Source: Halarcobacter sp.
GTDB taxonomy: Bacteria; Campylobacterota; Campylobacteria; Campylobacterales; Arcobacteraceae
Length of the DNA: 64,000 nucleotides
Assembly: GCA_048571215.1 (NCBI GenBank)
Contig: CP182352.1
Location: forward strand, 2,496,001-2,560,000
Direction: 5' to 3'
Under the pieces are notes generated by a model. That model worked only from the letters and a program-made list of their open reading frames with translations, was not told the DNA's origin and made no database searches. Shown one piece after another: positions 19,038 to 32,468 of this stretch. A program made the translations under genes and the position numbers. Position 1 is the first letter of the stretch. The number at the start of each line of letters is the position of its first letter.

Positions 19038-20196
19038 TAAACCTACCCATCTGTTTTAAAAACTTCTCCACTACTAAAAATGATCCGAAAATTAAATAAT
19101 TTTTAGAATTTTCAATTTTTGAAAAACTGGTTACCATTATATTTAAATTATTACAAATTTCTAATAAATTATTTTTATCACACATCCTATCATCAATATC
19201 TATTATAGTTATTTCATCTATTATAGGTTTTAATATACTTAAAACACTTGCATAATCTTTATCTTTATATGAGTTATAGATTAGATGTACCTTTTTTTTA
19301 TTTTTAAACTCATTTAAAATCGCCTTTGCTGCAAGGGGATTATGCCCAACATCAATGGTAACATTTGGTAAAACCTTTTGACATCTTCCAAAAAGTTCTG
19401 TTTTGCCAAAAAGGTTAGTATCCACTTCTATTTGTAAATCTTTTAAAAGTTCAATTACTAAACTTAAATTTTTATTTAAATAATTTGCAAAACTAGTTGG
19501 AAGTTTATAATCATCAAAATTTTCAACGCTCTTTATCTCTATATCTAAATTTTTTTCCTCTTTGAGTTCAAGTTTAACTTCATTTGCTACTTTAAAAACC
19601 TCATCAAACTCTTGATAACCTATAATCATCTTTTTATCAACTGATCTTAGTTTTGTTTTTGCAATCTCTTCTATAGTATTACCTAAAAAACTTTGATGGT
19701 CTAAACCGATGGTGGTCACTAAAGTCACATCACTTGGAACTACATTCGTAGCATCAAACTCTCCACCAAGCCCAGCTTCTAAAACTAAATAATCCATATG
19801 TGTAGAAAGTGTTAAAGCTAAGAGTGTTGTGTATTCAAAATATGTAAGTTTTTCTAAAAGCTTAATATCTAAAAGTTCTTGAAGATTTTTGTGTCCAATC
19901 TCTAACTCTAAATCACTACTATTTTTACCGTTTAACCAAATTCGTTCATTGAATTTTAATATATGTGGAGAGCTATAATGTAAAGTTTTGAATGATTTTT
20001 CAACTAAATATGAAGCTAGAAATCTACCTGTACTTCCCTTCCCATTTGTACCCACAATATGTATTACATATGGTAATTTTATTTTAGAAGAAAGTTTATC
20101 CCATGCTTTTTCAACAATAGAAAAATCTATTTTGTCATAATACATAGTTTTATGTTCTAAAAGCTTCACTAAGGAAGCTTTTTTAAAATCTAACAT
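19027..20196 (-). CDS. folC: Folylpolyglutamate synthase / dihydrofolate synthase
   Basis: GTNGKGST, SPH, TYFE, EAGLGG..DATNV, DVGHNP. Confidence 0.93.
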   Translation of the reverse strand: MLDFKKASLVKLLEHKTMYYDKIDFSIVEKAWDKLSSKIKLPYVIHIVGTNGKGSTGRFLASYLVEKSFKTLHYSSPHILKFNERIWLNGKNSSDLELEIGHKNLQELLDIKLLEKLTYFEYTTLLALTLSTHMDYLVLEAGLGGEFDATNVVPSDVTLVTTIGLDHQSFLGNTIEEIAKTKLRSVDKKMIIGYQEFDEVFKVANEVKLELKEEKNLDIEIKSVENFDDYKLPTSFANYLNKNLSLVIELLKDLQIEVDTNLFGKTELFGRCQKVLPNVTIDVGHNPLAAKAILNEFKNKKKVHLIYNSYKDKDYASVLSILKPIIDEITIIDIDDRMCDKNNLLEICNNLNIMVTSFSKIENSKNYLIFGSFLVVEKFLKQMGRFNEE

Positions 20197-20201
20197 ATAT
20201 A

Positions 20202-20717
20202 TTATTCTTTAAATGAGCTTACAGCAAGTTTTGAAATAACATCATCTAGGGCTCTTTTTGCAGCAACTTTTATAGCTTCGTATCTTTTTGTATCTGTAAT
20301 AGTTGTACCATTATCAATAGAAAAATCATAATCAGAACTAACTTTAAAGCTGTTCTTTTTTGTACTTTTTTTATTTTTGTATTCAACCAAAATAGAAACA
20401 ACAGCTTTGTATAATTTGTTATATCCCAAAGAGTCATATTGTAACTCTTGCATAGAAACAGAGTTTAGCTTTAGTTTTAAAACTGTATCAGCTAGCTCTT
20501 TACTATTTACAATCTGAGAATCAAGTCTGTTTACTATAAGTTTGTTCATTATATCTTTTATTATTACTGAATTTCTTGGGTCTTGCAAACTTACCTTTAA
20601 GTCCACAAAAATCTTTCCACTTAACTCTTTTTTAACATAATAACTAGATGGTTTATATCCACACCCTGTTAAGATAAAAAGTGACAAAAGACAAACTAAT
20701 AAAAGACCTGCTCTCAT
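20202..20717 (-). CDS. lptE: LPS assembly lipoprotein LptE
   Basis: Lipobox LTGCGY.P directly downstream of leuS (conserved synteny). Confidence 0.8.
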   Translation of the reverse strand: MRAGLLLVCLLSLFILTGCGYKPSSYYVKKELSGKIFVDLKVSLQDPRNSVIIKDIMNKLIVNRLDSQIVNSKELADTVLKLKLNSVSMQELQYDSLGYNKLYKAVVSILVEYKNKKSTKKNSFKVSSDYDFSIDNGTTITDTKRYEAIKVAAKRALDDVISKLAVSSFKE

Positions 20718-20718
20718 G

Positions 20719-23184
20719 CTATCCCTTTACAACTAGATTTACTAACTTATTTGGAACTACAATCTCTTTGATAAGAGTTTTTTCTTCCAACCATTTGCTT
20801 GAAGCCTCTTTTGCTAAAGCCAAGATTTCATCTTTGCTTGTATCAGGAGCCACTTCTATTTCACACCTTTTTTTACCATTTATTGTAACAGCTAAAACGA
20901 TTGAATCTAAAGCAAAAACTTCATCTTTTATCTTTATATCTGCTCCAAAATTTTTTCTATCAAATAGTACATCTGCAATTTCCCAAGTTAAGTGAGGGAT
21001 AATTGGTTCTAAAATATTTGTTAAAATATAGTATCCCTCTGCCCATACAAGTTCATTATCTTGTGCTTGAAGTGCATTCATAGCTTCCATTGAAGCTGCA
21101 ATTAGTGTATTAAAAGCATAAGTTTTATTAAATACATCACTAGACTTTTGTAAGGCTTCATATACTTTTCTTCTTGCCTCTTTTTCATCTTTTGACAAAC
21201 TAGAATGATCAATATTTTGGAAGTTTTTAACACCCTCGCTTGTAACTTGTGCTGATCTTTCTGAGAACTTTCTTATAAATCTAAAAGCTCCATCAACTGC
21301 ACTGTCATTCCACTCTAACTCTTTTGTAGGAGGAGCCGCAAACAACATAAATAATCTAGCTGTATCTGCTCCATATTTTTCTATAATCAAATCAGGGTCA
21401 ACTACATTACCCTTAGATTTAGACATTTTAGCCCCATCTTTTAAAACCATACCTTGAGTAAGTAGTCTTTTAAATGGTTCCCTTGAATTTGTATAACCTA
21501 AATCATTTAATACTTTTGTAAAAAATCTTGCATAAAGTAGGTGTAAAATTGCATGTTCAATCCCACCAATATATTGGTCAACATCCATCCAATAGTCACT
21601 ATCAGATTCTGATACACCTATTTTATTCCATTTTTTTGGATTTGTAGCATATCTTAAGAAGTACCATGATGATTGAACAAAAGTATCTAAGGTATCTGTT
21701 TCTCTTATAGCATCTTTTCCACATTTTGGACATTTACAATGTTTCCAAGTTGGATGAGTATCTAAAGGATTTCCTTCCCCTGTAATCTCAACATCTTCTG
21801 GAAGTGCAATAGGTAGATTTGATAGTTTTTCAGGGACTAAACCACAACTATCACAATGTACAAAAGGAATTGGTGCACCCCAATATCTTTGACGACTCAC
21901 TCCCCAATCTCTAAGTTTGAAGTTTATTTTTTTTGTTCCAAGTGAATTTTGCTCAAAGAAATAAATTATCCCTTTTTTAGCTCTTGTATTTGGTTGTCCT
22001 GAGAAACCTTCAGAGTTTATAAGTTTACCCTCAGCTGTATAGGCTTCCGTCATTCTATCAATAACTCCAGCATCTCCAACAATTACTTGTTTTAAAGGTA
22101 ATTCATACTCTTTTGCAAACTCAAAATCTCTTTGGTCATGGGCAGGCACTGCCATAACAGCTCCCCCACCATAAGAACTCAATACAAAGTTTGCAACCCA
22201 TACAGGGATTCTTTCAGCTGTTAAAGGATGGATAACTTCTATCTCTAAAGATACACCCTCTTTTGGCATAGTTGCTCTATCTCTTTCACTAACCTTTTGC
22301 ATAGCTTTTATTTTATTTAGCTTATTGTCATCTAAAAGTTTATTTTCAACTAGATATTGTACTATTGGATGTTCTGGCGCTAAGGCTGAGTAGGTAACCC
22401 CATAAATAGTATCTGGTCGTGTAGTAAATACATTATATGAAGAGAATTGTTTATCAAGTTTGTATCTAGCCTCTTTTGTAAGCTCAAAAGTAAACTCTAA
22501 ACCTTCACTTCTACCTATCCAATTCTCTTGCATAGTAAGTACCTGAGATGGCCATTGCCCCTCTAGTGATGACAAATCATCAAGTAACTCTTGGGCATAT
22601 TTAGTAATACCAATATAATATCCTGGCATCTCTTTTTGCTCAACAGGTGTTCCACATCTCCAACAACACCCCTCTTCTAACTGCTCATTAGCTAAAACAG
22701 TTAAATCATGCGGACACCAATTTACAGTTGTAGACTTTCTATATAAAAGCCCCTCTTCAAACATTTTGATAATAAACTCTTGTTCCCATTTAGTATATAA
22801 CTCATCACTTGTAGCAAACTCTCTTGTAGTAGAAAAACTAAGACCTAAAGATTTAAGTTCATCTCTCATATAGTCTATATTTTCATAAGTCCATTTTTTA
22901 GGATGAAGTTTATGCTTAATCGCTGCATTTTCTGCTGGCATACCAAAACTATCCCAACCAATTGGGTGTAAAACATTAAAATTAGCTTTTCTAAAAAATC
23001 TAGCAAAAGCATCACCTAAACAGTAGTTTCTAACATGCCCCATATGAATACGTCCACTTGGGTATGGAAACATACTTAAAATATATTTTTTCTCTTTTTC
23101 TGTACTATCTTCTGGTTCAAAACTATTATTTTCAATCCAATATTTTTGCCATTTTGCTTCAATATCTTTTGGATTATATTCCAT
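20719..23184 (-). CDS. leuS: Leucine-tRNA ligase
   Basis: MFPYPSG..HMGH, KMSKS; 821 aa. Confidence 0.98.
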
Positions 23185-23528
23185 TAATACTCTTCCTTAT
23201 CTTGACTTTTTGTACTCTCAATTAAAGCTAAAGCGATTGAGAATATATTTGCAACAACTGCACCAATTGCAAGTGAAGTTGCCATTGATTCATCTCCAAT
23301 AAAAGTCAACACCATAAATGCAGGAATAAGATGTAAATCTGCAACTAACGAACTAGCTAATAACTCAGCCGCCAAAAGATTTTTAACTCCAATTTTAAGA
23401 ATCGTAGAGATTACATTAACACCAGCTGCTAAAAAAAGAGCTACCGAATTTGGTTCATATAAAAACCCCGCTGTAGTTGTTAGAGACATAAGTGAAAAGA
23501 ATATGTATGTTACCTTACCCCAATCCAT
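23184..23528 (-). CDS. Conserved Campylobacterota membrane protein (DUF6394-like)
   Basis: MDWGKV..FF.LMSLT..; overlaps the leuS start. Confidence 0.7.
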
Positions 23529-23614
23529 GATTATCCTTCTATTATTGTATATTTAAGGGTAGATTTTATCTAAACTATAATAAAAAAGCTCTTTTGAAAG
23601 CTTTTATTATAACT

Positions 23615-24082
23615 TTAGGTTCTTTTTTTAATCGTAACTATCAATTGATATAAGAAATAAGTTAGTAAAAGTTTGAAAAATAGTTCAATAAAAAAAACAA
23701 ATCCAAATTTTAAATCAAAGAAATGAAAAGGGTTTATATTTTGAAGTAAAAAATTAAGTGTAAAATCATTTGTAACAACAAAATAAAGACCAATAGCACT
23801 AAAAAACATAAACTTCATAATAGTTCTTTTAGTTCCTTGAATAATATTATAAATAAAAAACCAAACATAAGTTGTAACAAGAATAGCAACTAAAGCCTCA
23901 GTATAAATAGAATGGGGTATGTTTTCAATTATTTTTTCACTATTATCTATAAACAAATATTCAATTATAGAAGCTATCAACTCAACAACAATAAGCCAAA
24001 AAAGTAGTAGCTGCCAATTTGTAGTATTTTCAGATGTCACTTTGTCAAAATTATATTTTATTTTTTTTATATTATCTTTCAT
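23615..24082 (-). CDS. Hypothetical membrane protein
   Basis: 155 aa with about 4 hydrophobic segments; RBS GAGG. Confidence 0.65.
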   Translation of the reverse strand: MKDNIKKIKYNFDKVTSENTTNWQLLLFWLIVVELIASIIEYLFIDNSEKIIENIPHSIYTEALVAILVTTYVWFFIYNIIQGTKRTIMKFMFFSAIGLYFVVTNDFTLNFLLQNINPFHFFDLKFGFVFFIELFFKLLLTYFLYQLIVTIKKRT

Positions 24083-24160
24083 GCGTCCCTCATGTAAATA
24101 TTTTTTAGTTATTATATATATTATAACATTAGAATAGTATCACATCAGTATCATTTTATG

Positions 24161-25039
24161 TTAATTTTTTATTTTTTTATTATATATCTTTATTTTCGTC
24201 TTGTATTTTGACGAATTGAGATAATTAGTTGGGAGACTAGGTAATTTTTTTTCTAAAATATATTTAGAAAGAATTGAACTAAGAATTATTTTTCTAATTT
24301 TATGTTCAATATAAATACCACACTTACAATTTATCATTGAAATGTTATAAAAACGATTCCATGTTTTACCATTATCTTGAGATATTTCTAGTTTGTTTTC
24401 ATTTCCTTTTAAATGTATGTCCTTATATCTCATATTTAATTTTTCAATAATTAACTTACTTGGGGGTAAAATTTTTATTTTTAGAGAAATTTCTCTTAAT
24501 TTTTCTCTAATTAAAATTACATTTCCTATACATTCTATATCCCAATTATCAATATATACATCCCATTTATTATTAATAATTTTTAACGATTTTTTTCCTA
24601 ATGAATTATAAAAAACTCCTGAAATCAATATTCCATTCTCATCTTTTTGTATAGATAAAATTGGCTTCTCATTTATTTGAATTAAGTTTTTACAATTTTT
24701 ATAATGTGTACCAGCTATGCTTATATCTAAATCATTATCTGAAAAATCAAAATATTCATGAGCAAATTTATCTGATAAACATTTTGGTTTTTCATTCGCT
24801 TTAATAACTTTTTCTAAAGATAAAACTCCTCTATTTCTTTTTTGATTACATTGCATACATAATAATGTAATTTCATCTTCACTATGTTCTAAAGCATCTT
24901 TAAATTCAGGATAGAAATGTTCATAATCATACCATGCAAATCCACATATTACACAGCCATAACCACATCTTTTTCTTACATTTCTTTTTATATCTGCTGG
25001 TATATTTCTAGATAAACCATGTTTGTTAATACTAGACAT
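24161..25039 (-). CDS. HNH endonuclease-like protein
   Basis: SR.IP.D.KR.VR.RCGYGCVICG...YEHF.P..H..ITLLC..CN; probable start MSSINK at 25039. Confidence 0.7.
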   Translation of the reverse strand: MSSINKHGLSRNIPADIKRNVRKRCGYGCVICGFAWYDYEHFYPEFKDALEHSEDEITLLCMQCNQKRNRGVLSLEKVIKANEKPKCLSDKFAHEYFDFSDNDLDISIAGTHYKNCKNLIQINEKPILSIQKDENGILISGVFYNSLGKKSLKIINNKWDVYIDNWDIECIGNVILIREKLREISLKIKILPPSKLIIEKLNMRYKDIHLKGNENKLEISQDNGKTWNRFYNISMINCKCGIYIEHKIRKIILSSILSKYILEKKLPSLPTNYLNSSKYKTKIKIYNKKIKN

Positions 25040-25130
25040 AACTTTCCTAAATAAAATTAATAAAATCATTATATTTAAAATATAATTTATTCTCTCTTGA
25101 AGAGTAAGCAGAGAAAAATTTTCTTATGTA

Positions 25131-25359
25131 AATTGAATATCACACCAACTAAAACAAAATGGTACTAAAAAATGCAAAGGTCAATTTTCCCTATTCCCGC
25201 ATTTGAGAAGCCGAGTGTTTATTTATTGTTTCGGAGAAGTTTTGTAACTGTTTGAACAGAACAAATATGCTGGGAGCATATTTTTATGTGAGTTTTACAA
25301 AACAGAAACAATAAATAATAAGCGAGGGTAGTTTCACCTTCGAAACCCGCGGGATAATT
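25131..25359 (+). repeat. Structured repeat element copy A, left part (interrupted by IS110)
   Basis: Aligns with 27023-27256; nested inverted repeats. Confidence 0.85.
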
Positions 25360-25369
25360 CGTATAATAA

Positions 25370-25600
25370 AATATTGGAAATATGATAGTATATTTTCATA
25401 GAGTTCAATAGAAGATGATATATTGTGTGGGTGGTTGAAGCAATTAAAAATAATTTTAATTAGCTTGTAAAGAAGTTCAATAGTTATACTTCAAATTTGA
25501 GTGGCAACAAGAACAGTTTTATAACTAGTTCGTATTTACGAGTCTAAAGTTTGTATGACGAAATATCAGGTAGGAATTTTATTCCTACCCTAACGAACTC
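25370..25600 (+). ncRNA. Putative IS110 bridge RNA
   Basis: TATAAT at 25362; two stem-enclosed internal loops whose unpaired segments match the target (25429-25436, 25469-25475) and the donor junction (25501-25508, 25537-25542); transcript ends approximate. Confidence 0.75.
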
Positions 25601-25626
25601 TTTATATTAATACAAAGGTTCTAGAT

Positions 25627-26610
25627 ATGTATTCTATCGGATTAGATATAAGTAAGTCAACAATTAATATTTATATCCCTATCAATGATTTAGATATTCA
25701 AATATCAAATAATTTGAAATCACTTAAAGGTTTTTATTCTAAGTTAAAAAAACTTTATAAAAAAGATATAGATAAACTTGTATTTGTTTTTGAACCTACA
25801 GCTAATTATTCCTTTTTAATTAAAAAGTTTTGTTCTGAAAAAAGTATACACTGTTTTATTGTTAATCCAAAGAAAAGTGCTAACTTTGCTAAAGCAATTG
25901 GTCAAAGAAATAAAACTGACCTTTTAGATGCTAGAATGTTATCTCAGATGATAGTTACTGCAAGAAAAAATCAGATTAAAATACCCATTATTAATCCTTA
26001 TGCCGAGGAATTAAAAGAGCTTATTACATATTATAAATTTATATCAAAAATTAAAACTCAAAATAAAAATCATTTGGAAGCTTTAGTTTCAAAAGATGCT
26101 TCATCTATTATAATTAAATCATTAAGAAAAGATATAAAATCATTTGAAAAAAAAGAAAAAGATATTCTTATTGAGATAAAAAAAGTTATTGCAAAAGACA
26201 AAAATTTACATAATGCATTTTTAAATATCCAAACTATAAAAGGCATAGGAGAATTATCTTCAATTATATTATTACACCATTTTATACAATATCCTGATAC
26301 AAATCAAAAGCAAATTGTTTCATTAGCTGGATTAGATCCAGTTAGTAGAGATTCTGGTTCATCAATAAAAGGAAAAACAAAAATATCAAAATCTGGTTCA
26401 AAATTATGTAGGGGTACATTATTTATGGCAGTAATGACAGCGATACAATACAATGAAGAATTAAAAATATTTTATAATAGATTAAAAGAGAATGGCAAAC
26501 ATACTACTGTAGCACAAATTGCTGTAATGCGAAAAATGATTGTAATTGCTCACTCATTATATAAAAATAATAATATATATGACCCTAATAAATTTAAAAG
26601 TATATCATAA
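25627..26610 (+). CDS. IS110-family transposase (DEDD recombinase)
   Basis: GLDISK, FEPT, KTDLLDA (DEDD); I.GIG, AGLDP...SGSS, ISK.G...R. Confidence 0.95.
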   Translation: MYSIGLDISKSTINIYIPINDLDIQISNNLKSLKGFYSKLKKLYKKDIDKLVFVFEPTANYSFLIKKFCSEKSIHCFIVNPKKSANFAKAIGQRNKTDLLDARMLSQMIVTARKNQIKIPIINPYAEELKELITYYKFISKIKTQNKNHLEALVSKDASSIIIKSLRKDIKSFEKKEKDILIEIKKVIAKDKNLHNAFLNIQTIKGIGELSSIILLHHFIQYPDTNQKQIVSLAGLDPVSRDSGSSIKGKTKISKSGSKLCRGTLFMAVMTAIQYNEELKIFYNRLKENGKHTTVAQIAVMRKMIVIAHSLYKNNNIYDPNKFKSIS

Positions 26611-26659
26611 ATATTAGATTTAAATATTTTATATTTTATCATTTTTTAAGGTGGCAACT

Positions 26660-26755
26660 TCTTTGCTACTTTCTTTTTCACAAAAGAAAGTCGATAGAAA
26701 TTAAGACGTATAGTAAAAGTTTATTTATACTCAAATATATTAATAATAGTTTTAA
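26660..26755 (+). repeat. Structured repeat element copy A, right part
   Basis: TTTGCTACTTTCTTTT..AAAAGAAAGTCGA..AGACGTA..AAAAGTTTATTTATACTCAAATA matches 27258-27372. Confidence 0.85.
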
Positions 26756-26782
26756 GTGTATGCAATTATCTTGTAGAACAAA

Positions 26783-26990
26783 GTTCTCCGCTTTCTTTAC
26801 TTTTAGTGGTAAAAGTAAAACAAAAGCCACCAGACGGTTGTTGAAGCTAAAGTTCCCTACAGCTTTCTAATTATTTCCTGACCTGCGGGACGCCTTCCTA
26901 AAAGGTACATTCAGTACCTTTTATCCAGTTGAACGGTCCTCGGTCTTCTCCGAAAATAATTAAAAACCTTCCGGCTTCAACAAAGTCTGG
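26783..26990 (-). repeat. Structured repeat element copy C (inverted, diverged)
   Basis: Reverse complement keeps TTG..GAAGCCG, TTCGGAGAAG, AGGGAAC..GCTTC and the terminal TACTTTT/AAAAGTA hairpin in the same nested order. Confidence 0.7.
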
Positions 26991-27022
26991 ACAAATACTC
27001 TAGCCACGAACTTTCTCTTAGT

Positions 27023-27372
27023 AATTGAGTATCACACCAGCTTAAATAAAATGGTAACAAAAAATGCAAAGGTCCTTATCCCACCTTCCCGCATTTGAGA
27101 AGCCGAGTGTTTATTTATCTCTTTTGAAAACAAGTGACTAAACTGTCTGAAGCGTAAAGAAATGTGCTGGGAGCACATTTTAGCAAGTTTTTAGGCACTC
27201 AAAAGGGATGAATAATAAACGAGGGAACCTTCGGCTTCGAAACCTGTGGGATGATTTTTTTGCTACTTTCTTTTTGCCTGCGAGCAGGATTGACATCACA
27301 AAAGAAAGTCGAGAAAGCCAAGACGTACATTAAAAGTTTATTTATACTCAAATATTTTGAAAATAGTTTTAA
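27023..27372 (+). repeat. Structured repeat element copy B (uninterrupted)
   Basis: Homologous to copy A with compensatory stem changes. Confidence 0.85.
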
Positions 27373-27409
27373 TTGGTGAGATACCCAATATATATAAAAT
27401 TTTAAATAT

Positions 27410-27441
27410 AAAAAAAGGAGATAGCAAACTGCTATCTCCTT
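27410..27441 (-). terminator. Intrinsic terminator after secF
   Basis: AAGGAGATAGC-aaact-GCTATCTCCTT followed by a T run on the minus strand. Confidence 0.8.
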
Positions 27442-27475
27442 TGATAGATTAGATGATATTTAGAAACTATGTTTC

Positions 27476-28444
27476 TTATACAGTTCCCTGCTCATACATA
27501 GCTCTTAACTTATCTTTCTCTTTTTGCTTCTTAACTTTCTCAGCCTCTTTAGCTCTAAAATTTGCAATATTAAATTTTAATTGCACTAAAAATGAAGCTG
27601 CAATAAAGATAGATGAGTATGTACCAACGATGATACCTACAAGCATTGTAAAGGCAAAACCGTGGATTATCTCTCCACCGAAGGCAAATAGTGTTATAAC
27701 AACAAAGAATGTTGTCAATGAAGTAAGTGTAGTTCTTGATAAAGTTCTACTTACTGATTCATTTGTTATAAGACTAAGTACTGTTTCTTTTGAGCTTTGT
27801 ATCCCTTCTCTAATTCTATCAAATACGATAATTGTATCGTTTAGAGAGTACCCAAGGATAGTAAGGATTGCTGCTAGGATATCTAGGTTAACCTCTACAC
27901 TAAATAAACTTATTGCACCCATAGCAATAGTAACATCATGTGCTAAAGCTAGGATCGATGCAATGGCAAATCTCCATTCAAACCTAAAAGATACATAAAT
28001 TAGAATAACAATTAAAGAAAGTCCTAATGCCATTAGACCCTTTTCCCTTAACTCTCCACCAACTTTTGGTCCAACCATATCCACTCGTCTTACTTCAAAG
28101 TTTCCAGTTGTATCCAAAATCTTATGCATCTCATCACCAATATCAGTTGCAAGATTTGATGAAGTTCCTGTTACTCTAATAACAACCTCTTCAGGTGTTC
28201 CAAACTCTGTTATTGAAGAACCTTTATAATCTGTTTTATTTAATACTTCTCTTATCTTATCTATTGGTGCTTTTTTGTCATATTTTACTTGTACAATAGT
28301 ACCTCCAGCAAAATCAATACCAAAGTTTAATCCCTTTGTTGTAAGTAAAATAATAGAGGCAATAACCAAAATAGCTGATAGACCTAAAAATGGGATTCTT
28401 TTTCCCATAAAATCATAAATTTTATCGCTTTTAAAAATTTCCAT
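27476..28444 (-). CDS. secF: Protein translocase subunit SecF
   Basis: GIDFAGG, VGPKVG.EL, GYSLNDTIIVFDRIRE; likely start MEIFK at 28444. Confidence 0.97.
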   Translation of the reverse strand: MEIFKSDKIYDFMGKRIPFLGLSAILVIASIILLTTKGLNFGIDFAGGTIVQVKYDKKAPIDKIREVLNKTDYKGSSITEFGTPEEVVIRVTGTSSNLATDIGDEMHKILDTTGNFEVRRVDMVGPKVGGELREKGLMALGLSLIVILIYVSFRFEWRFAIASILALAHDVTIAMGAISLFSVEVNLDILAAILTILGYSLNDTIIVFDRIREGIQSSKETVLSLITNESVSRTLSRTTLTSLTTFFVVITLFAFGGEIIHGFAFTMLVGIIVGTYSSIFIAASFLVQLKFNIANFRAKEAEKVKKQKEKDKLRAMYEQGTV

Positions 28445-28446
28445 TG

Positions 28447-30009
28447 CTAAATCCCAAACCATTTTTTTGTATTTTTATCTTTTGATATTTTAGGTAATAG
28501 TGCCTCATACATTCCATGAGTTCCTAAAATAGCTGTTAACATTGAAGCTAAAATACCAATTGAGATAGTTACTGCAAAACCTTTTATTGGTCCTGTACCA
28601 TATGCGTATAAAATAACTGCTACAAGAAGAGTTGTAATATTTGCATCCAAGATGGCTCTCATTGCATTTGAGTATCCATCTTCAATAGCTTTTGGTATAC
28701 TCATACCGCCTCTTAGAAGCTCTCTTATTCTTTCACTAATAATTACATTGGCATCAACTGCCATACCAACAGTTAGAACAATACCTGCCATACCAGGAAG
28801 TGTTAAGGTTGCTCCAAACATAGCCATAACAGATATAATAATAAAAATATTTGTAACCAAAGCTACATTTGCAATAACACCTGCTCTTCTATAATAAACA
28901 ATCATAAAAATAAATACAATTAAAAAACCAGATATCAGTGCAAACATTGAGGCTTTAATAGAATCAGCTCCCAAGCTAGGTCCAACACTTCTTTTTTCAA
29001 GTAGTGTAACAGAAGCAGGTAATGCCCCACTTCTTAAGGCAATTGCTACATTTCCAGCTTCAACTGTTGTAAAACCACCAGAGATTTGTCCAGAACCACC
29101 ACCGATTCTCTCTCTAATATTTGGTGCAGAATAGACCTTCCCATCTAATACAATAGCAAGTCTTTTTCCTATATTCTTAGCTGTAAAATCTCCAAAAATT
29201 CTTGCTCCACTTGCATTAAGTGTAAAGTTAATAATTGCTTGATTTGACTTATCAAAGGCAACTTTTGCATCTATTACTTGACTCCCATTTAAAATGGGAA
29301 TCTCTTTTACTAAATATTTTTTTTGAGAATTTTTAGTATCTTCTAAGATAATATCTCCATATTGTGCAACTTGAGCTTTACTCATAGTATATACTTGATC
29401 TGCTCTTTCCTCATCAATTGACATCAACTCTAAATTTGCAGGTTTAGAGATAAGTTCCCTTGCTGCCTTTTCATCTGCTTGAGTTTTAATACCAGGAAGT
29501 TCTACAACAATATCAGTATCACCCTGCCTTATAACAATAGGTTCAGCTAAACCAAATTGGTCAAGTCTATTTCTAATAGTCTCAACAGCTTGAGAAACTG
29601 CTAAATCTTTAGTTGTTAAAACTTCAGATTTTGTTAGTTCAACTTTTAAGTCTAAACCATCTTTTGTGATGTTTAAACCTTTTATCTTTTCTAACATCTT
29701 ATCAACTTTTGGTATTTCGTCTTTATCCAAAACAGTAAAAACAACACTGTCATTTTTTATTGAAAGTCCATCTATTAAAATATCTTCATCATCAGCAAAA
29801 TATTTTATAGATGTAGCTATTGATTTGATTTTTGATGTTACTGCTTCATCGGTTTTTACACCCAAAAGCATATGTAGCCCACCTTGTAGGTCAAGACCTA
29901 GTGAGATTTTCTTCCCTGAGTCCATTTGTAAGAAAGAGGGAATTGAAAAAACAACCCCAAATATTACACTCAGCATAAATATAATTAGTCTATAATTAAA
30001 GATTTTCAA
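28447..30009 (-). CDS. secD: Protein translocase subunit SecD
   Basis: LGLDLQGG, GPSLG.DSI, GMAVDANV..ERIRE. Confidence 0.97.
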   Translation of the reverse strand: MKIFNYRLIIFMLSVIFGVVFSIPSFLQMDSGKKISLGLDLQGGLHMLLGVKTDEAVTSKIKSIATSIKYFADDEDILIDGLSIKNDSVVFTVLDKDEIPKVDKMLEKIKGLNITKDGLDLKVELTKSEVLTTKDLAVSQAVETIRNRLDQFGLAEPIVIRQGDTDIVVELPGIKTQADEKAARELISKPANLELMSIDEERADQVYTMSKAQVAQYGDIILEDTKNSQKKYLVKEIPILNGSQVIDAKVAFDKSNQAIINFTLNASGARIFGDFTAKNIGKRLAIVLDGKVYSAPNIRERIGGGSGQISGGFTTVEAGNVAIALRSGALPASVTLLEKRSVGPSLGADSIKASMFALISGFLIVFIFMIVYYRRAGVIANVALVTNIFIIISVMAMFGATLTLPGMAGIVLTVGMAVDANVIISERIRELLRGGMSIPKAIEDGYSNAMRAILDANITTLLVAVILYAYGTGPIKGFAVTISIGILASMLTAILGTHGMYEALLPKISKDKNTKKWFGI

Positions 30010-30044
30010 CTCTTTTCCTTAGAATTTAGAAATAAAATATGAGA

Positions 30045-30075
30045 TTTAAAACATGTAAAAATTACATGTTTTAAA
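30045..30075. other. Perfect hairpin between yajC and secD
   Basis: TTTAAAACATGTAA-aaa-TTACATGTTTTAAA. Confidence 0.5.
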
Positions 30076-30079
30076 AAAA

Positions 30080-30352
30080 TTAATCCACAAGTTTTGCTAC
30101 GAATTCTCTAACAAGTTTCATTTCAGTATTATCATGATTTTTTACAATTAAGTATTCATCTTCAACTTTTGTAATTTCAACCATTAAGCCACCATTTGTT
30201 ACAATCTTATCACCCTTTTTAAGTTCTGCAACCATAGACTTGTGCTGTTTAGCTTGTTTTTGTTGTGGTCTTATAATTAAGAAGTAGAATATTGCAAATA
30301 ATGCAACAAGAGGTAGTAATGAGCTTATTAAATCTGTACTTTGACCGTCCAT
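30080..30352 (-). CDS. yajC: Preprotein translocase subunit YajC
   Basis: FYFLIIRPQQKQ.K..L.KGD.IVT.GG. Confidence 0.95.
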   Translation of the reverse strand: MDGQSTDLISSLLPLVALFAIFYFLIIRPQQKQAKQHKSMVAELKKGDKIVTNGGLMVEITKVEDEYLIVKNHDNTEMKLVREFVAKLVD

Positions 30353-30380
30353 TAAATTTCCTTTGTAAAAGTATTTTTAT

Positions 30381-31610
30381 ATGTTTTTAGTAAAACGCGA
30401 ATATTTTAACAAAACCTATATTATAAAAGGCTTGATAACTTCATGCTTTTTTAGTGCTTTTATATACTTAAGCTATTTTGGTTTTGAATATAAGCTTTTA
30501 AATACAATTTTAGGGCTTATTACAATATATCTTTTATTGAAAAATGAAAGATTATCTTTATTTTATAGTGGATTTTTTACAGCTATTTTTTGGTTTTATT
30601 GGGTTGGTATTAGTTTTCAATATTACGATTTAACATATCTAAGCCCCCTAATAATCATATTCTTTGGTATTGTTTATGGATTTTTATTTTTATTTATAGC
30701 TTTAATTGATAATTTGTTATTTAGAGTGATTATAATTTTTTTACTCTCATATATTCATCCTTTTGGATTTAATTGGTTTATTCCCGAACTTGTTTTTATA
30801 AATAGTTACATTCCTGTTACAAAAGAACACTTTGCACTTGTTTTGGCTTTAACTTATATGTTCATAAGTTTAAAAAAATGGAAATTTATTGCAATTATTC
30901 CACTTTTTTTCATAACATCTAATACAGGTTTATATATAGATAACCCCCATTTAAAAATTGCAATGCCACAACTAAATACTAAACAAGATTTAAAATGGAT
31001 AAAAAATAACATCTCTACACAAATTCAAATAAATTTTGAATATATAAATAAAGCAATAAAAGATAAAAAAGAGTTAATAATACTTCCAGAAACTGCTTTT
31101 CCTATAGTTTTAAATAAAGACACCTTTGTTTATCATAATCTTCAAATGATGTCTGAAGATATAGATATTATTGTTGGTTCTATTTATTTACAAGAAGAAC
31201 AATACTACAATGCCACGTACTATTTTTCTAAAGGTAAAGTAAAAATTGCAAAAAAAGTGGTATTAGTTCCTTTTGGAGAGAAGATTCCCCTTCCAAAGTT
31301 TTTTGTTGATTTGATAAATAATACCTTTTATAATGGTGCAAAAGATTATGAAAAAGCAAAAAAGCCAACTGATTTTGAGATAAAAGGTATAAAATTTAGA
31401 AATGCCATATGTTATGAAGCTACAAGTGATGAGATTTATCAAAATCTAAACACAGTAAGGTATATGATAGCAACTTCAAATAATGCTTGGTTTACCCCAT
31501 CAATTGAACCCACTTTACAAAAACTACTTTTAAAGTATTATGCTAAGAAGTATGATATAACGATTTTTCACTCAATTAATGGTAGTTCAAACTATATCAT
31601 AAGACCTTAA
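30381..31610 (+). CDS. lnt: Apolipoprotein N-acyltransferase
   Basis: LPETAFP, K..LVPFGE, ICYE, SNNAWF. Confidence 0.92.
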   Translation: MFLVKREYFNKTYIIKGLITSCFFSAFIYLSYFGFEYKLLNTILGLITIYLLLKNERLSLFYSGFFTAIFWFYWVGISFQYYDLTYLSPLIIIFFGIVYGFLFLFIALIDNLLFRVIIIFLLSYIHPFGFNWFIPELVFINSYIPVTKEHFALVLALTYMFISLKKWKFIAIIPLFFITSNTGLYIDNPHLKIAMPQLNTKQDLKWIKNNISTQIQINFEYINKAIKDKKELIILPETAFPIVLNKDTFVYHNLQMMSEDIDIIVGSIYLQEEQYYNATYYFSKGKVKIAKKVVLVPFGEKIPLPKFFVDLINNTFYNGAKDYEKAKKPTDFEIKGIKFRNAICYEATSDEIYQNLNTVRYMIATSNNAWFTPSIEPTLQKLLLKYYAKKYDITIFHSINGSSNYIIRP

Positions 31611-31661
31611 ATTATTTTAAGCTACTATTCTAAAATTATTTATTAAAAAAAGGATTATTTA

Positions 31662-32468
31662 ATGGAAGAATATGCATCTTTGTTTATAAATTTAACAATA
31701 GAATATGCACCAAAACTTGCATTGGCAATTGTTACTTTAGTTTTAGGTTTATGGGCTATTGGTATTGTTGCTACTATTTTAGAAAAAAGTTTAATTACTG
31801 CTAAAACAGATAAAACACTTATCCCGTTTTTAACAAGTCTTACTTCATGGATTTTAAAGATATTGTTATTTATCTCAGTGGCTTCCATGGTAGGTATAGC
31901 AACCACCTCTTTTGTTGCTGTCTTAGGTGCTGCTGGTTTAGCAGTTGGATTGGCGCTACAAGGTTCATTGTCTAACTTTGCTGGGGGAGTTTTACTTTTA
32001 ATCTTTAGACCTTATAAGGTTGGAGATTTAATAGAATCTCAAGGGCATATTGGACGAGTAAAAGAGATACAAATATTTAATACTATTTTGACTACTTTTC
32101 AAAATAAAACTATTATTATTCCTAATTCTGTTGTTTCATCTAACTCAATTGTAAATATTTCTGGAAATGGAACAATAAGAGTAGATATGGAGATAGGTAT
32201 CTCATATGGAAGTGATATAGACAAAGCAAGAGAAGTTATTTTAAGTACAGTTTCTAAAAATGAAAAGGTATTAAAAGATCCTGCATGTGCTGTTGGTGTT
32301 AATGCTTTAGCAGATAGTTCAGTAAATCTACTTGTTATGCCATGGTGTGAAGCAAAAGATTATTGGGATGTTTATTTTGGTGTTAGGGAAGATATCAAAA
32401 AAGCACTAGATGCAAACAAAATCGTTATCCCATTCCCTCAAAGAGATGTACATATTATCAACTCTTAA
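31662..32468 (+). CDS. mscS: Small-conductance mechanosensitive channel
   Basis: GAAGLAVGLALQGSLSNFAGG, RP.KVGD, IPFPQ. Confidence 0.92.
   Translation: MEEYASLFINLTIEYAPKLALAIVTLVLGLWAIGIVATILEKSLITAKTDKTLIPFLTSLTSWILKILLFISVASMVGIATTSFVAVLGAAGLAVGLALQGSLSNFAGGVLLLIFRPYKVGDLIESQGHIGRVKEIQIFNTILTTFQNKTIIIPNSVVSSNSIVNISGNGTIRVDMEIGISYGSDIDKAREVILSTVSKNEKVLKDPACAVGVNALADSSVNLLVMPWCEAKDYWDVYFGVREDIKKALDANKIVIPFPQRDVHIINS

Follow-up and report, generated by a model that had tools for sequence, protein, structure and literature searches.

Introduction

The described systems closest to the locus analysed here are IS621 of Escherichia coli, with its 177-nt bridge RNA (PMC11208160, PMC11208158, PMC13626964; structure 8wt6), and ISCro4/IS622 (10.1101/2025.05.14.653916; PDB 9t56). 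In IS621, the top strands are cut after position 9 of the site and the bottom strands between positions 5 and 6 (converted here from the 9*/10* numbering); T9 of the core is read by the protein and C8 is not (PMC11208158), and the products carry mismatches beside the core, at positions 6-7 (PMC13626964). CT and GT cores abolish cross-recombination in IS621 and are in this sense orthogonal, and different cores have been used to keep two guides apart (10.64898/2026.04.29.721476). In bridge-recombinase designs, two sites are combined only if their cores are identical (10.1101/2025.05.14.653916). Integration of CazIS110-1 is described as mainly top-strand (10.1101/2025.10.25.684509). In the IS1111 group (seekRNA), the guide RNA lies downstream of the transposase (PMC11187229).

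A published pipeline took cores to be repeated sequences and gave priority to CT, so natural elements with unlike cores could have been missed by it (PMC11208160). Our literature search for natural mismatched or non-identical IS110 cores, or for IS110 together with Arcobacter, returned nothing relevant, although supplements may list such elements. Here we describe element A, an IS621-like element in a 64,000-nucleotide stretch of a Halarcobacter sp. genome (the window; contig CP182352.1, positions 2,496,001 to 2,560,000). A bridge RNA is predicted to arise from its left end, and this RNA likely directs a CT-core donor into a TT-core target.

Results and discussion

Element A is an intact IS621-like IS110 element

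The genome carries four copies of element A with 0 nucleotide differences among them, and its boundaries (Table 1) were set independently by these identical copies with unlike flanks and by empty sites; the joint at an empty site omits about 1,300 bp. Both junctions, GGATAA-TT/CGTATAAT on the left and GGTGGCAA-CT/TCTTTGC on the right (slash, boundary of the element), lie where a first-pass annotation, made from the sequence alone, had put them. A paralogue, B, is present in three genomic copies with 63% identity to element A. The relatives that bear names belong to Arcobacteraceae and Sulfurimonas.

The single open reading frame of element A encodes a recombinase of 327 aa, which matches PF01548 and PF02371 and scores above the cut-off of the NCBIfam IS110 model NF033542. 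It aligns over its full length with the IS621 protein (8wt6; E 5.6e-27) and is equally similar to that of ISCro4 (9t56; E 6.6e-27), and residues D7, E56, D98 and D101 (DEDD) and S243 line up with the catalytic residues of IS621. Protein size, domains and the DEDD-plus-serine set are thus shared with IS621, and the intact recombinase claimed in the first-pass annotation is confirmed, as is the identity of element A as an intact IS621-like IS110 element. Programmability is suggested by natural re-targeting among relatives. The non-coding ends, 267 bp on the left and 49 bp on the right, show the long left end and short right end of the IS110 group; the guides lie upstream of the recombinase, and the IS1111-group layout is absent. 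Rfam returned no relevant family for window positions 20000-32000.

Beside the host repeat that flanks the element, a 302-aa ORF on the minus strand (24161-25069) contains paired cysteine motifs that hint at an HNH-type nuclease; it has no Pfam or NCBIfam match.

Table 1. Features of element A and its target in the window (all on the plus strand; RNA features are predictions).
Feature	Position	Strand	Evidence
Left part of interrupted host repeat unit	25119..25359	+	
Left target positions 1-7 GGGATAA and target core TT (25358-25359)	25351..25359	+	copies, empty sites
IS110 element A, 1,300 bp including right-end CT core	25360..26659	+	four-copy comparison, empty-site joint
Right donor CGTAT, positions 10-14, overlapping TATAAT, -10-like hexamer 25362-25367	25360..25367	+	putative promoter role
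Predicted bridge RNA 5' stem-loop	25375..25398	+	5/9 pairs with two-sided change
Predicted target-binding loop; closing stem 25421-25424/25479-25482, inner hairpin 25438-25466	25421..25482	+	covariation
Left target guide TGGGTGGTT, positions 1-9, U at position 8	25428..25436	+	covariation, 9/9 allele
Right target guide AAAGAAG (25469-25475; reads core CT and TCTTT), then handshake UU	25469..25477	+	covariation
Predicted donor-binding loop; outer stem GTTATAC/GTATGAC, inner hairpin 25511-25531	25483..25559	+	covariation
Left donor guide GTGGCAAC	25501..25508	+	six variants match own right ends
Right donor guide, likely AT-(TT bulge)-ACGAG, then handshake UC	25534..25544	+	bulged register by analogy with IS621 (PMC11208158)
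Conserved extra hairpin 3' of donor loop	25569..25589	+	98% paired, 6/8 pairs two-sided
IS110 recombinase, 327 aa	25627..26610	+	PF01548, PF02371, NF033542
Left donor GTGGCAA and donor core CT	26651..26659	+	copies
Right target TCTTT, positions 10-14	26660..26664	+	copies, empty sites
Rest of interrupted repeat and more repeat; empty target GGGATGA-TT-TTTTT at 27248-27261	26660..27380	+	

Covariation supports a two-loop bridge RNA

Folding the left end, which the first-pass annotation had proposed as a check, did not recover the two loops from the single sequence: the 226-nt segment gave a z of -2.74 with a different minimum-energy fold, and the separate loops gave -0.79 and -1.05. The predicted fold therefore relies on covariation among 25 aligned left ends. 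In the structure first proposed, 88.4% of cells were paired and 18 of 32 pairs showed two-sided changes, against a shuffled mean of 10.8 (0/500) and 23-52% pairing when the structure was slid along the alignment. Both of its inner hairpins are borne out, with two-sided changes in 10/12 pairs of the target loop and 7/8 pairs of the donor loop. For the stem TATTG/CAATA that was to close loop 1, four pairs hold and the fifth is unpaired in 21 of the 25 sequences. The closing stem given for loop 2, CAAATTT/AAGTTTG, is a weak point (0/7 two-sided changes, 73.7% pairing) and needs re-registering; a shifted register with GTTATAC/GTATGAC fits better (96.5% paired, 4/7 two-sided).

The IS621-type layout proposed for the left end, which consists of a left-end RNA with a 5' stem-loop and two guide loops (PMC11208160), is nonetheless upheld by the covariation in the 25 sequences, and the two stem-loops with internal loops typical of the IS110 group are present in the predicted fold. 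The guides of 9, 7 and 8 nt are likewise shared with IS621, although in element A the right target guide is naturally 7 nt. Unlike IS621, element A has the extra 3' hairpin and possibly a long-range enclosing helix, AGAGTTC/GAACTCT, which is conserved (90% paired) with no two-sided change.

The GTTAT strand of the donor-loop stem can alternatively extend the loop-1 stem (96% paired, 3/5 two-sided), so that one RNA strand (25415-25419, 25483-25489, 25553-25559) can close either the target or the donor loop, and both pairings covary. This alternative could correspond to a two-fold switch or to processing into separate loops. In one relative (L095), the inner hairpin of the target loop contains a long extra palindromic insertion.

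Guide segments track target and donor sequences

All four guide segments were found at the coordinates first assigned to them, with the left target guide then read as 8 nt, GGGTGGTT (25429-25436), and the right donor guide as TACGAG (25537-25542). Relatives with a match were gathered from 30 of 151 family genomes. The 84 loci obtained yielded 48 distinct insertions and 26 guide sets after duplicates had been merged and incomplete or unparsed loci dropped (nine without donor loop or right end, L031, L032 and L004). With 1 point for a match and 0.5 for a wobble, the left target guides scored 5.87/7 against their own left flanks (shuffled 3.72, maximum 4.60) and the right target guides 4.51/5 against their own right flanks (shuffled 1.84), with 0/3000 permutations reaching these values in the 26 guide sets, which are related to one another, so that p values overstate significance. 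The covariation of guides with insertion sites on which the first-pass annotation had staked its reading is therefore found: the target guides of relatives track their real junctions.

Each of positions 1-8 of the left guide covaries with the target and position 9 is invariant; position 0 covaries weakly (0.45 vs 0.26, p 0.008), and positions -1 and -2 show no covariation. Position 8, the first core base, follows the target even with element A excluded (0.74 vs 0.48 shuffled, p ~0.0007, 21 sets). The AG of both right guides, by contrast with this re-programmed position, is invariant (25/25). Donor guides occur in six variants, each matching its own element end. In the donor loop, the handshake follows target position 7 (0.71 vs 0.44, p ~0.002), and in 24/26 sets the first base of the target-loop handshake is U opposite donor A7. 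Element A and its relatives hence show the IS110-group arrangement in which left guides read the bottom strand and right guides the top strand, covarying with target and donor, and in which the handshake bases correspond to positions 6-7 of the other partner. The probably bulged right donor guide, the handshake bases and insertion in an intergenic repeat are further points shared with IS621.

Target and donor cores differ at position 8

Empty sites were located by a pattern in which the core was left free. TT occupied the core in 31/31 of them and CT in 0/31 (4 of 25 genomes), all four copies of element A have TT at the left junction, and the element ends in CT. The mismatch between a TT target and a CT donor, which the first-pass annotation had put forward, is therefore real. 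Target and donor have one base in common, T9, without further duplication. The identical two-base CT core of IS621 and IS622 is thus absent (TT/CT in place of the CT/CT of IS621), the short core common to target and donor in the IS110 group comes down to T9 alone, and element A has every testable feature of the IS110 family except the identical two-base core.

Among the 26 guide sets, the left junction was CT in 17, TT in 4, AT in 2, mixed CT/TT in 2 and GT in 1, a doubtful case (L005) that may be a 1-base insertion; 9/26 are non-CT. The empty sites establish the TT target for element A, and for relatives the target core was read from the left junction. Two more TT junctions beyond these sets, in L096 and L071, go with U at guide position 8, and in a close pair of relatives guide C stands with target CT (L023) and guide G with target AT (L022). 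On a 30-protein tree, a quick version without bootstrap, the left-junction core label changes 7 times, with at least 4 changes forced. TT left junctions recur on separate branches. The unlike core is not peculiar to element A. The right junction was CT in 48/48 insertions, partly by construction since the parser searched with the donor guide, and a one-mismatch fallback yielded no non-CT end. Moreover, a contig of public run X6 places a left end identical to that of element A at a non-repeat site with a CT core; this single contig (depth 6, RNA library) is weak evidence, on which the same bridge RNA appears to accept both CT and TT targets.

Target and donor have the same base at position 7 in 23/48 insertions. 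The window copy is among them and, unlike IS621, has target and donor alike at positions 6-7 (25356-25357, 26656-26657). Element A shares with ISCro4/IS622 the 14-nt site geometry, and breaks both of the design rules given for that system, identical cores and non-matching positions 6-7 (10.1101/2025.05.14.653916).

A one-T-short junction was observed in run X9, and the junction pattern had no match in metagenome contigs. In L002 and L094, related IS110 elements are inserted at the same codons of a probable IS3-family transposase gene; one of the two left junctions is TT, the other CT.

The guide matches an allele of a multicopy host repeat

All four copies of element A interrupt a multicopy intergenic repeat at one and the same base, in both its AA and GG alleles, and paralogue B occupies another position of the same repeat family; within this repeat, elements A, B and several relatives seem to have different target positions. 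The repeat is a non-coding unit of ~600 bp with several hairpins, often tandem, beside accessory-looking genes; it forms about 16 clusters in the genome, its copies are 70-95% alike, and it has no Rfam match. A partial repeat copy at G000 2240365-2240465 (G000 being the genome of element A) is joined to a short stretch resembling a tRNA end.

The first-pass annotation had taken the G-rich left guide for a wobble-tolerant design. This interpretation does not stand, as the guide TGGGTGGTT is a 9/9 match to an existing repeat allele. That allele, which lacks an extra A, is empty in the genome of element A (G000 382952), and in public run X7 exactly this allele is occupied by a sister element whose right guide is altered so as to match TTTTT. 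The window copy matches the left guide poorly, with one mismatch and three wobbles; A3 and A4 have one mismatch and a single wobble each. No insertion is present in two repeat copies whose left targets match better. The guide of a sister element in runs X5 and X9 carries three differences, and each of them corresponds to a polymorphism of the repeat. In the relatives as a whole, positions 1-7 of the left guide comprise 271 matches, 26 wobbles and 39 mismatches. The Gs of the guide accordingly reflect the target, and the tolerance of wobbles is real but family-wide rather than special; IS621 itself has a G·T wobble in its left target guide, G53·T (PMC11208158).

Insertion in copies of one intergenic repeat and wobble tolerance are shared with ISPpu10, for which a target stem-loop requirement is reported (10.64898/2026.03.19.712850). 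Extra specificity from a target hairpin was considered for element A and found not to be needed; the repeat segment, as DNA, folds like its shuffles (z 0.05). With a loose score, 552 non-repeat sites equal the window's site against 21 empty repeat sites, and with a strict rule there are 22 non-repeat sites, 21 of them in genes, against 14 empty repeat sites. Guide matching together with selection against insertions in genes can explain the choice of sites without a stem-loop.

One of the 31 sites departs from the repeat. At G000 635817-635847, minus strand (L087:1501-1531), GGGTGG-TT is followed by CGTAT in place of TCTTT and then by normal repeat; guide positions 2-9 are matched, and CGTAT equals the right-donor bases of the element. 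The motif GGGTGG-TT-CGTAT has no exact match in the other 150 genomes. This copy may be a scar left by an insertion that was aborted or lost imprecisely.

Alternative readings of the junctions

The four copies would overstate RNA-guided activity on TT targets if one or two insertions had been followed by spread among the repeats through homologous recombination or gene conversion. The similarity of the repeats, the 148 identical bp of left flank shared by A3 and A4 and the 79 bases of right flank shared by A1 and A4 would all suit such spread, and because of the flank common to A3 and A4 the number of independent insertions is two to four. The AA and GG left flanks, however, differ 3 bases from the junction, which makes at least two insertions separate, and sister elements at other alleles in public runs as well as the TT left junctions on separate branches of the tree also speak against it; we judge spread from one or two insertions to be quite improbable. 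Still harder to maintain, and largely refuted, is the notion that the true target core was CT and that a later mutation or repair event produced the T of the left junction. The right target guide does read CT rather than TT, and CT is the preferred core of IS621, but CT is found in none of the empty sites and TT in all four copies, and position 8 of the left guide is itself U.

The wobbles of the left guide could also be an artefact of register, if the guide read the repeat with a one-base DNA bulge (TGTGGG-TGGTT on TGTGGG(A)TGGTT, 11 pairs) instead of through G·T pairs. All 11/11 bases then match for A3 and A4, position 0 covaries weakly in relatives as noted above, and the sister guide varies between T and C at 25428, as does the repeat. 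Yet the same facts are expected of a guide derived from the allele that lacks the extra A, no covariation is seen at positions -1 and -2, and the protein wedge of IS621 limits the opened DNA to 14 bp (PMC11208158). We regard the bulged register as unlikely.

A model for joining unlike cores

By analogy with IS621, the joined ends of element A would form the donor GTGGCAA-CT-CGTAT, the top strands would be cut after position 9 and exchanged, and positions 6-9 would go through a heteroduplex stage in which mismatches at 6-7 are already tolerated. The T/C difference would lengthen this mismatch by one base, and the RNA would accommodate the added mismatch at position 8: U8 of the left target guide would pair with A in a TT target or G in a CT target, and the G8 kept by both right guides would pair with C, or with T by wobble, both before the exchange and after it. 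Of the products, the genome would then retain those of the top strand, with the target core at the left junction and the donor core at the right, and the real common core would be the single base T9. All four copies have this top-strand outcome, which is expected from top-strand insertion, or from repair or selection favouring an intact donor end; it also fits the mainly top-strand integration of CazIS110-1 (10.1101/2025.10.25.684509). From the orthogonality of CT and GT cores in IS621, mismatches at position 8 are not generally free, and right-guide wobble offers no explanation for the AT-core cases.

A broader proposal, for which we see about even chances, is that the bridge RNA of this Campylobacterota clade specifies the first core base independently in target and donor. 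The left guide would be re-programmed (U for T, A or G for A) and the right guides would stay G, with T9 alone in common; CT and TT would be non-orthogonal, the junctions would record top-strand-only joining, and the CGTAT repeat copy may be a one-strand scar.

The bridge-RNA mechanism was already described in 2024, and element A is otherwise one more IS621 relative, a modest variant. Its interest lies in natural CT-to-TT joining with a readable wobble explanation, which predicts that TT sites are targetable with a CT donor and that CT/TT would be a poor choice where orthogonality is wanted. Unlike cores would likely loosen the identical-core design rule for genome-editing bridge recombinases, and they are natural markers of which strand is joined, a disputed point. 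No unlike cores are described for ISPpu10 or CazIS110-1 in the available portions of their reports (10.64898/2026.03.19.712850; 10.1101/2025.10.25.684509).

Circle joint and candidate promoter

Members of the IS110 group form a circular intermediate whose junction creates a promoter, and their RNA is expressed, binds the recombinase and guides recombination. For element A, no circle joint was present in the contigs of six runs, which proves nothing since contigs drop rare forms. In run X6, an RNA library seen as contigs, the left end, the gene and the flank are covered alike, and RNA and DNA are inseparable in it. A TATAAT hexamer lies at the left end of the element (Table 1), and the host repeat provides a TCGAAA hexamer 16 bases before it (25340-25367), with a promoter-scan count at chance level; the integrated copy might be transcribed from this pair.
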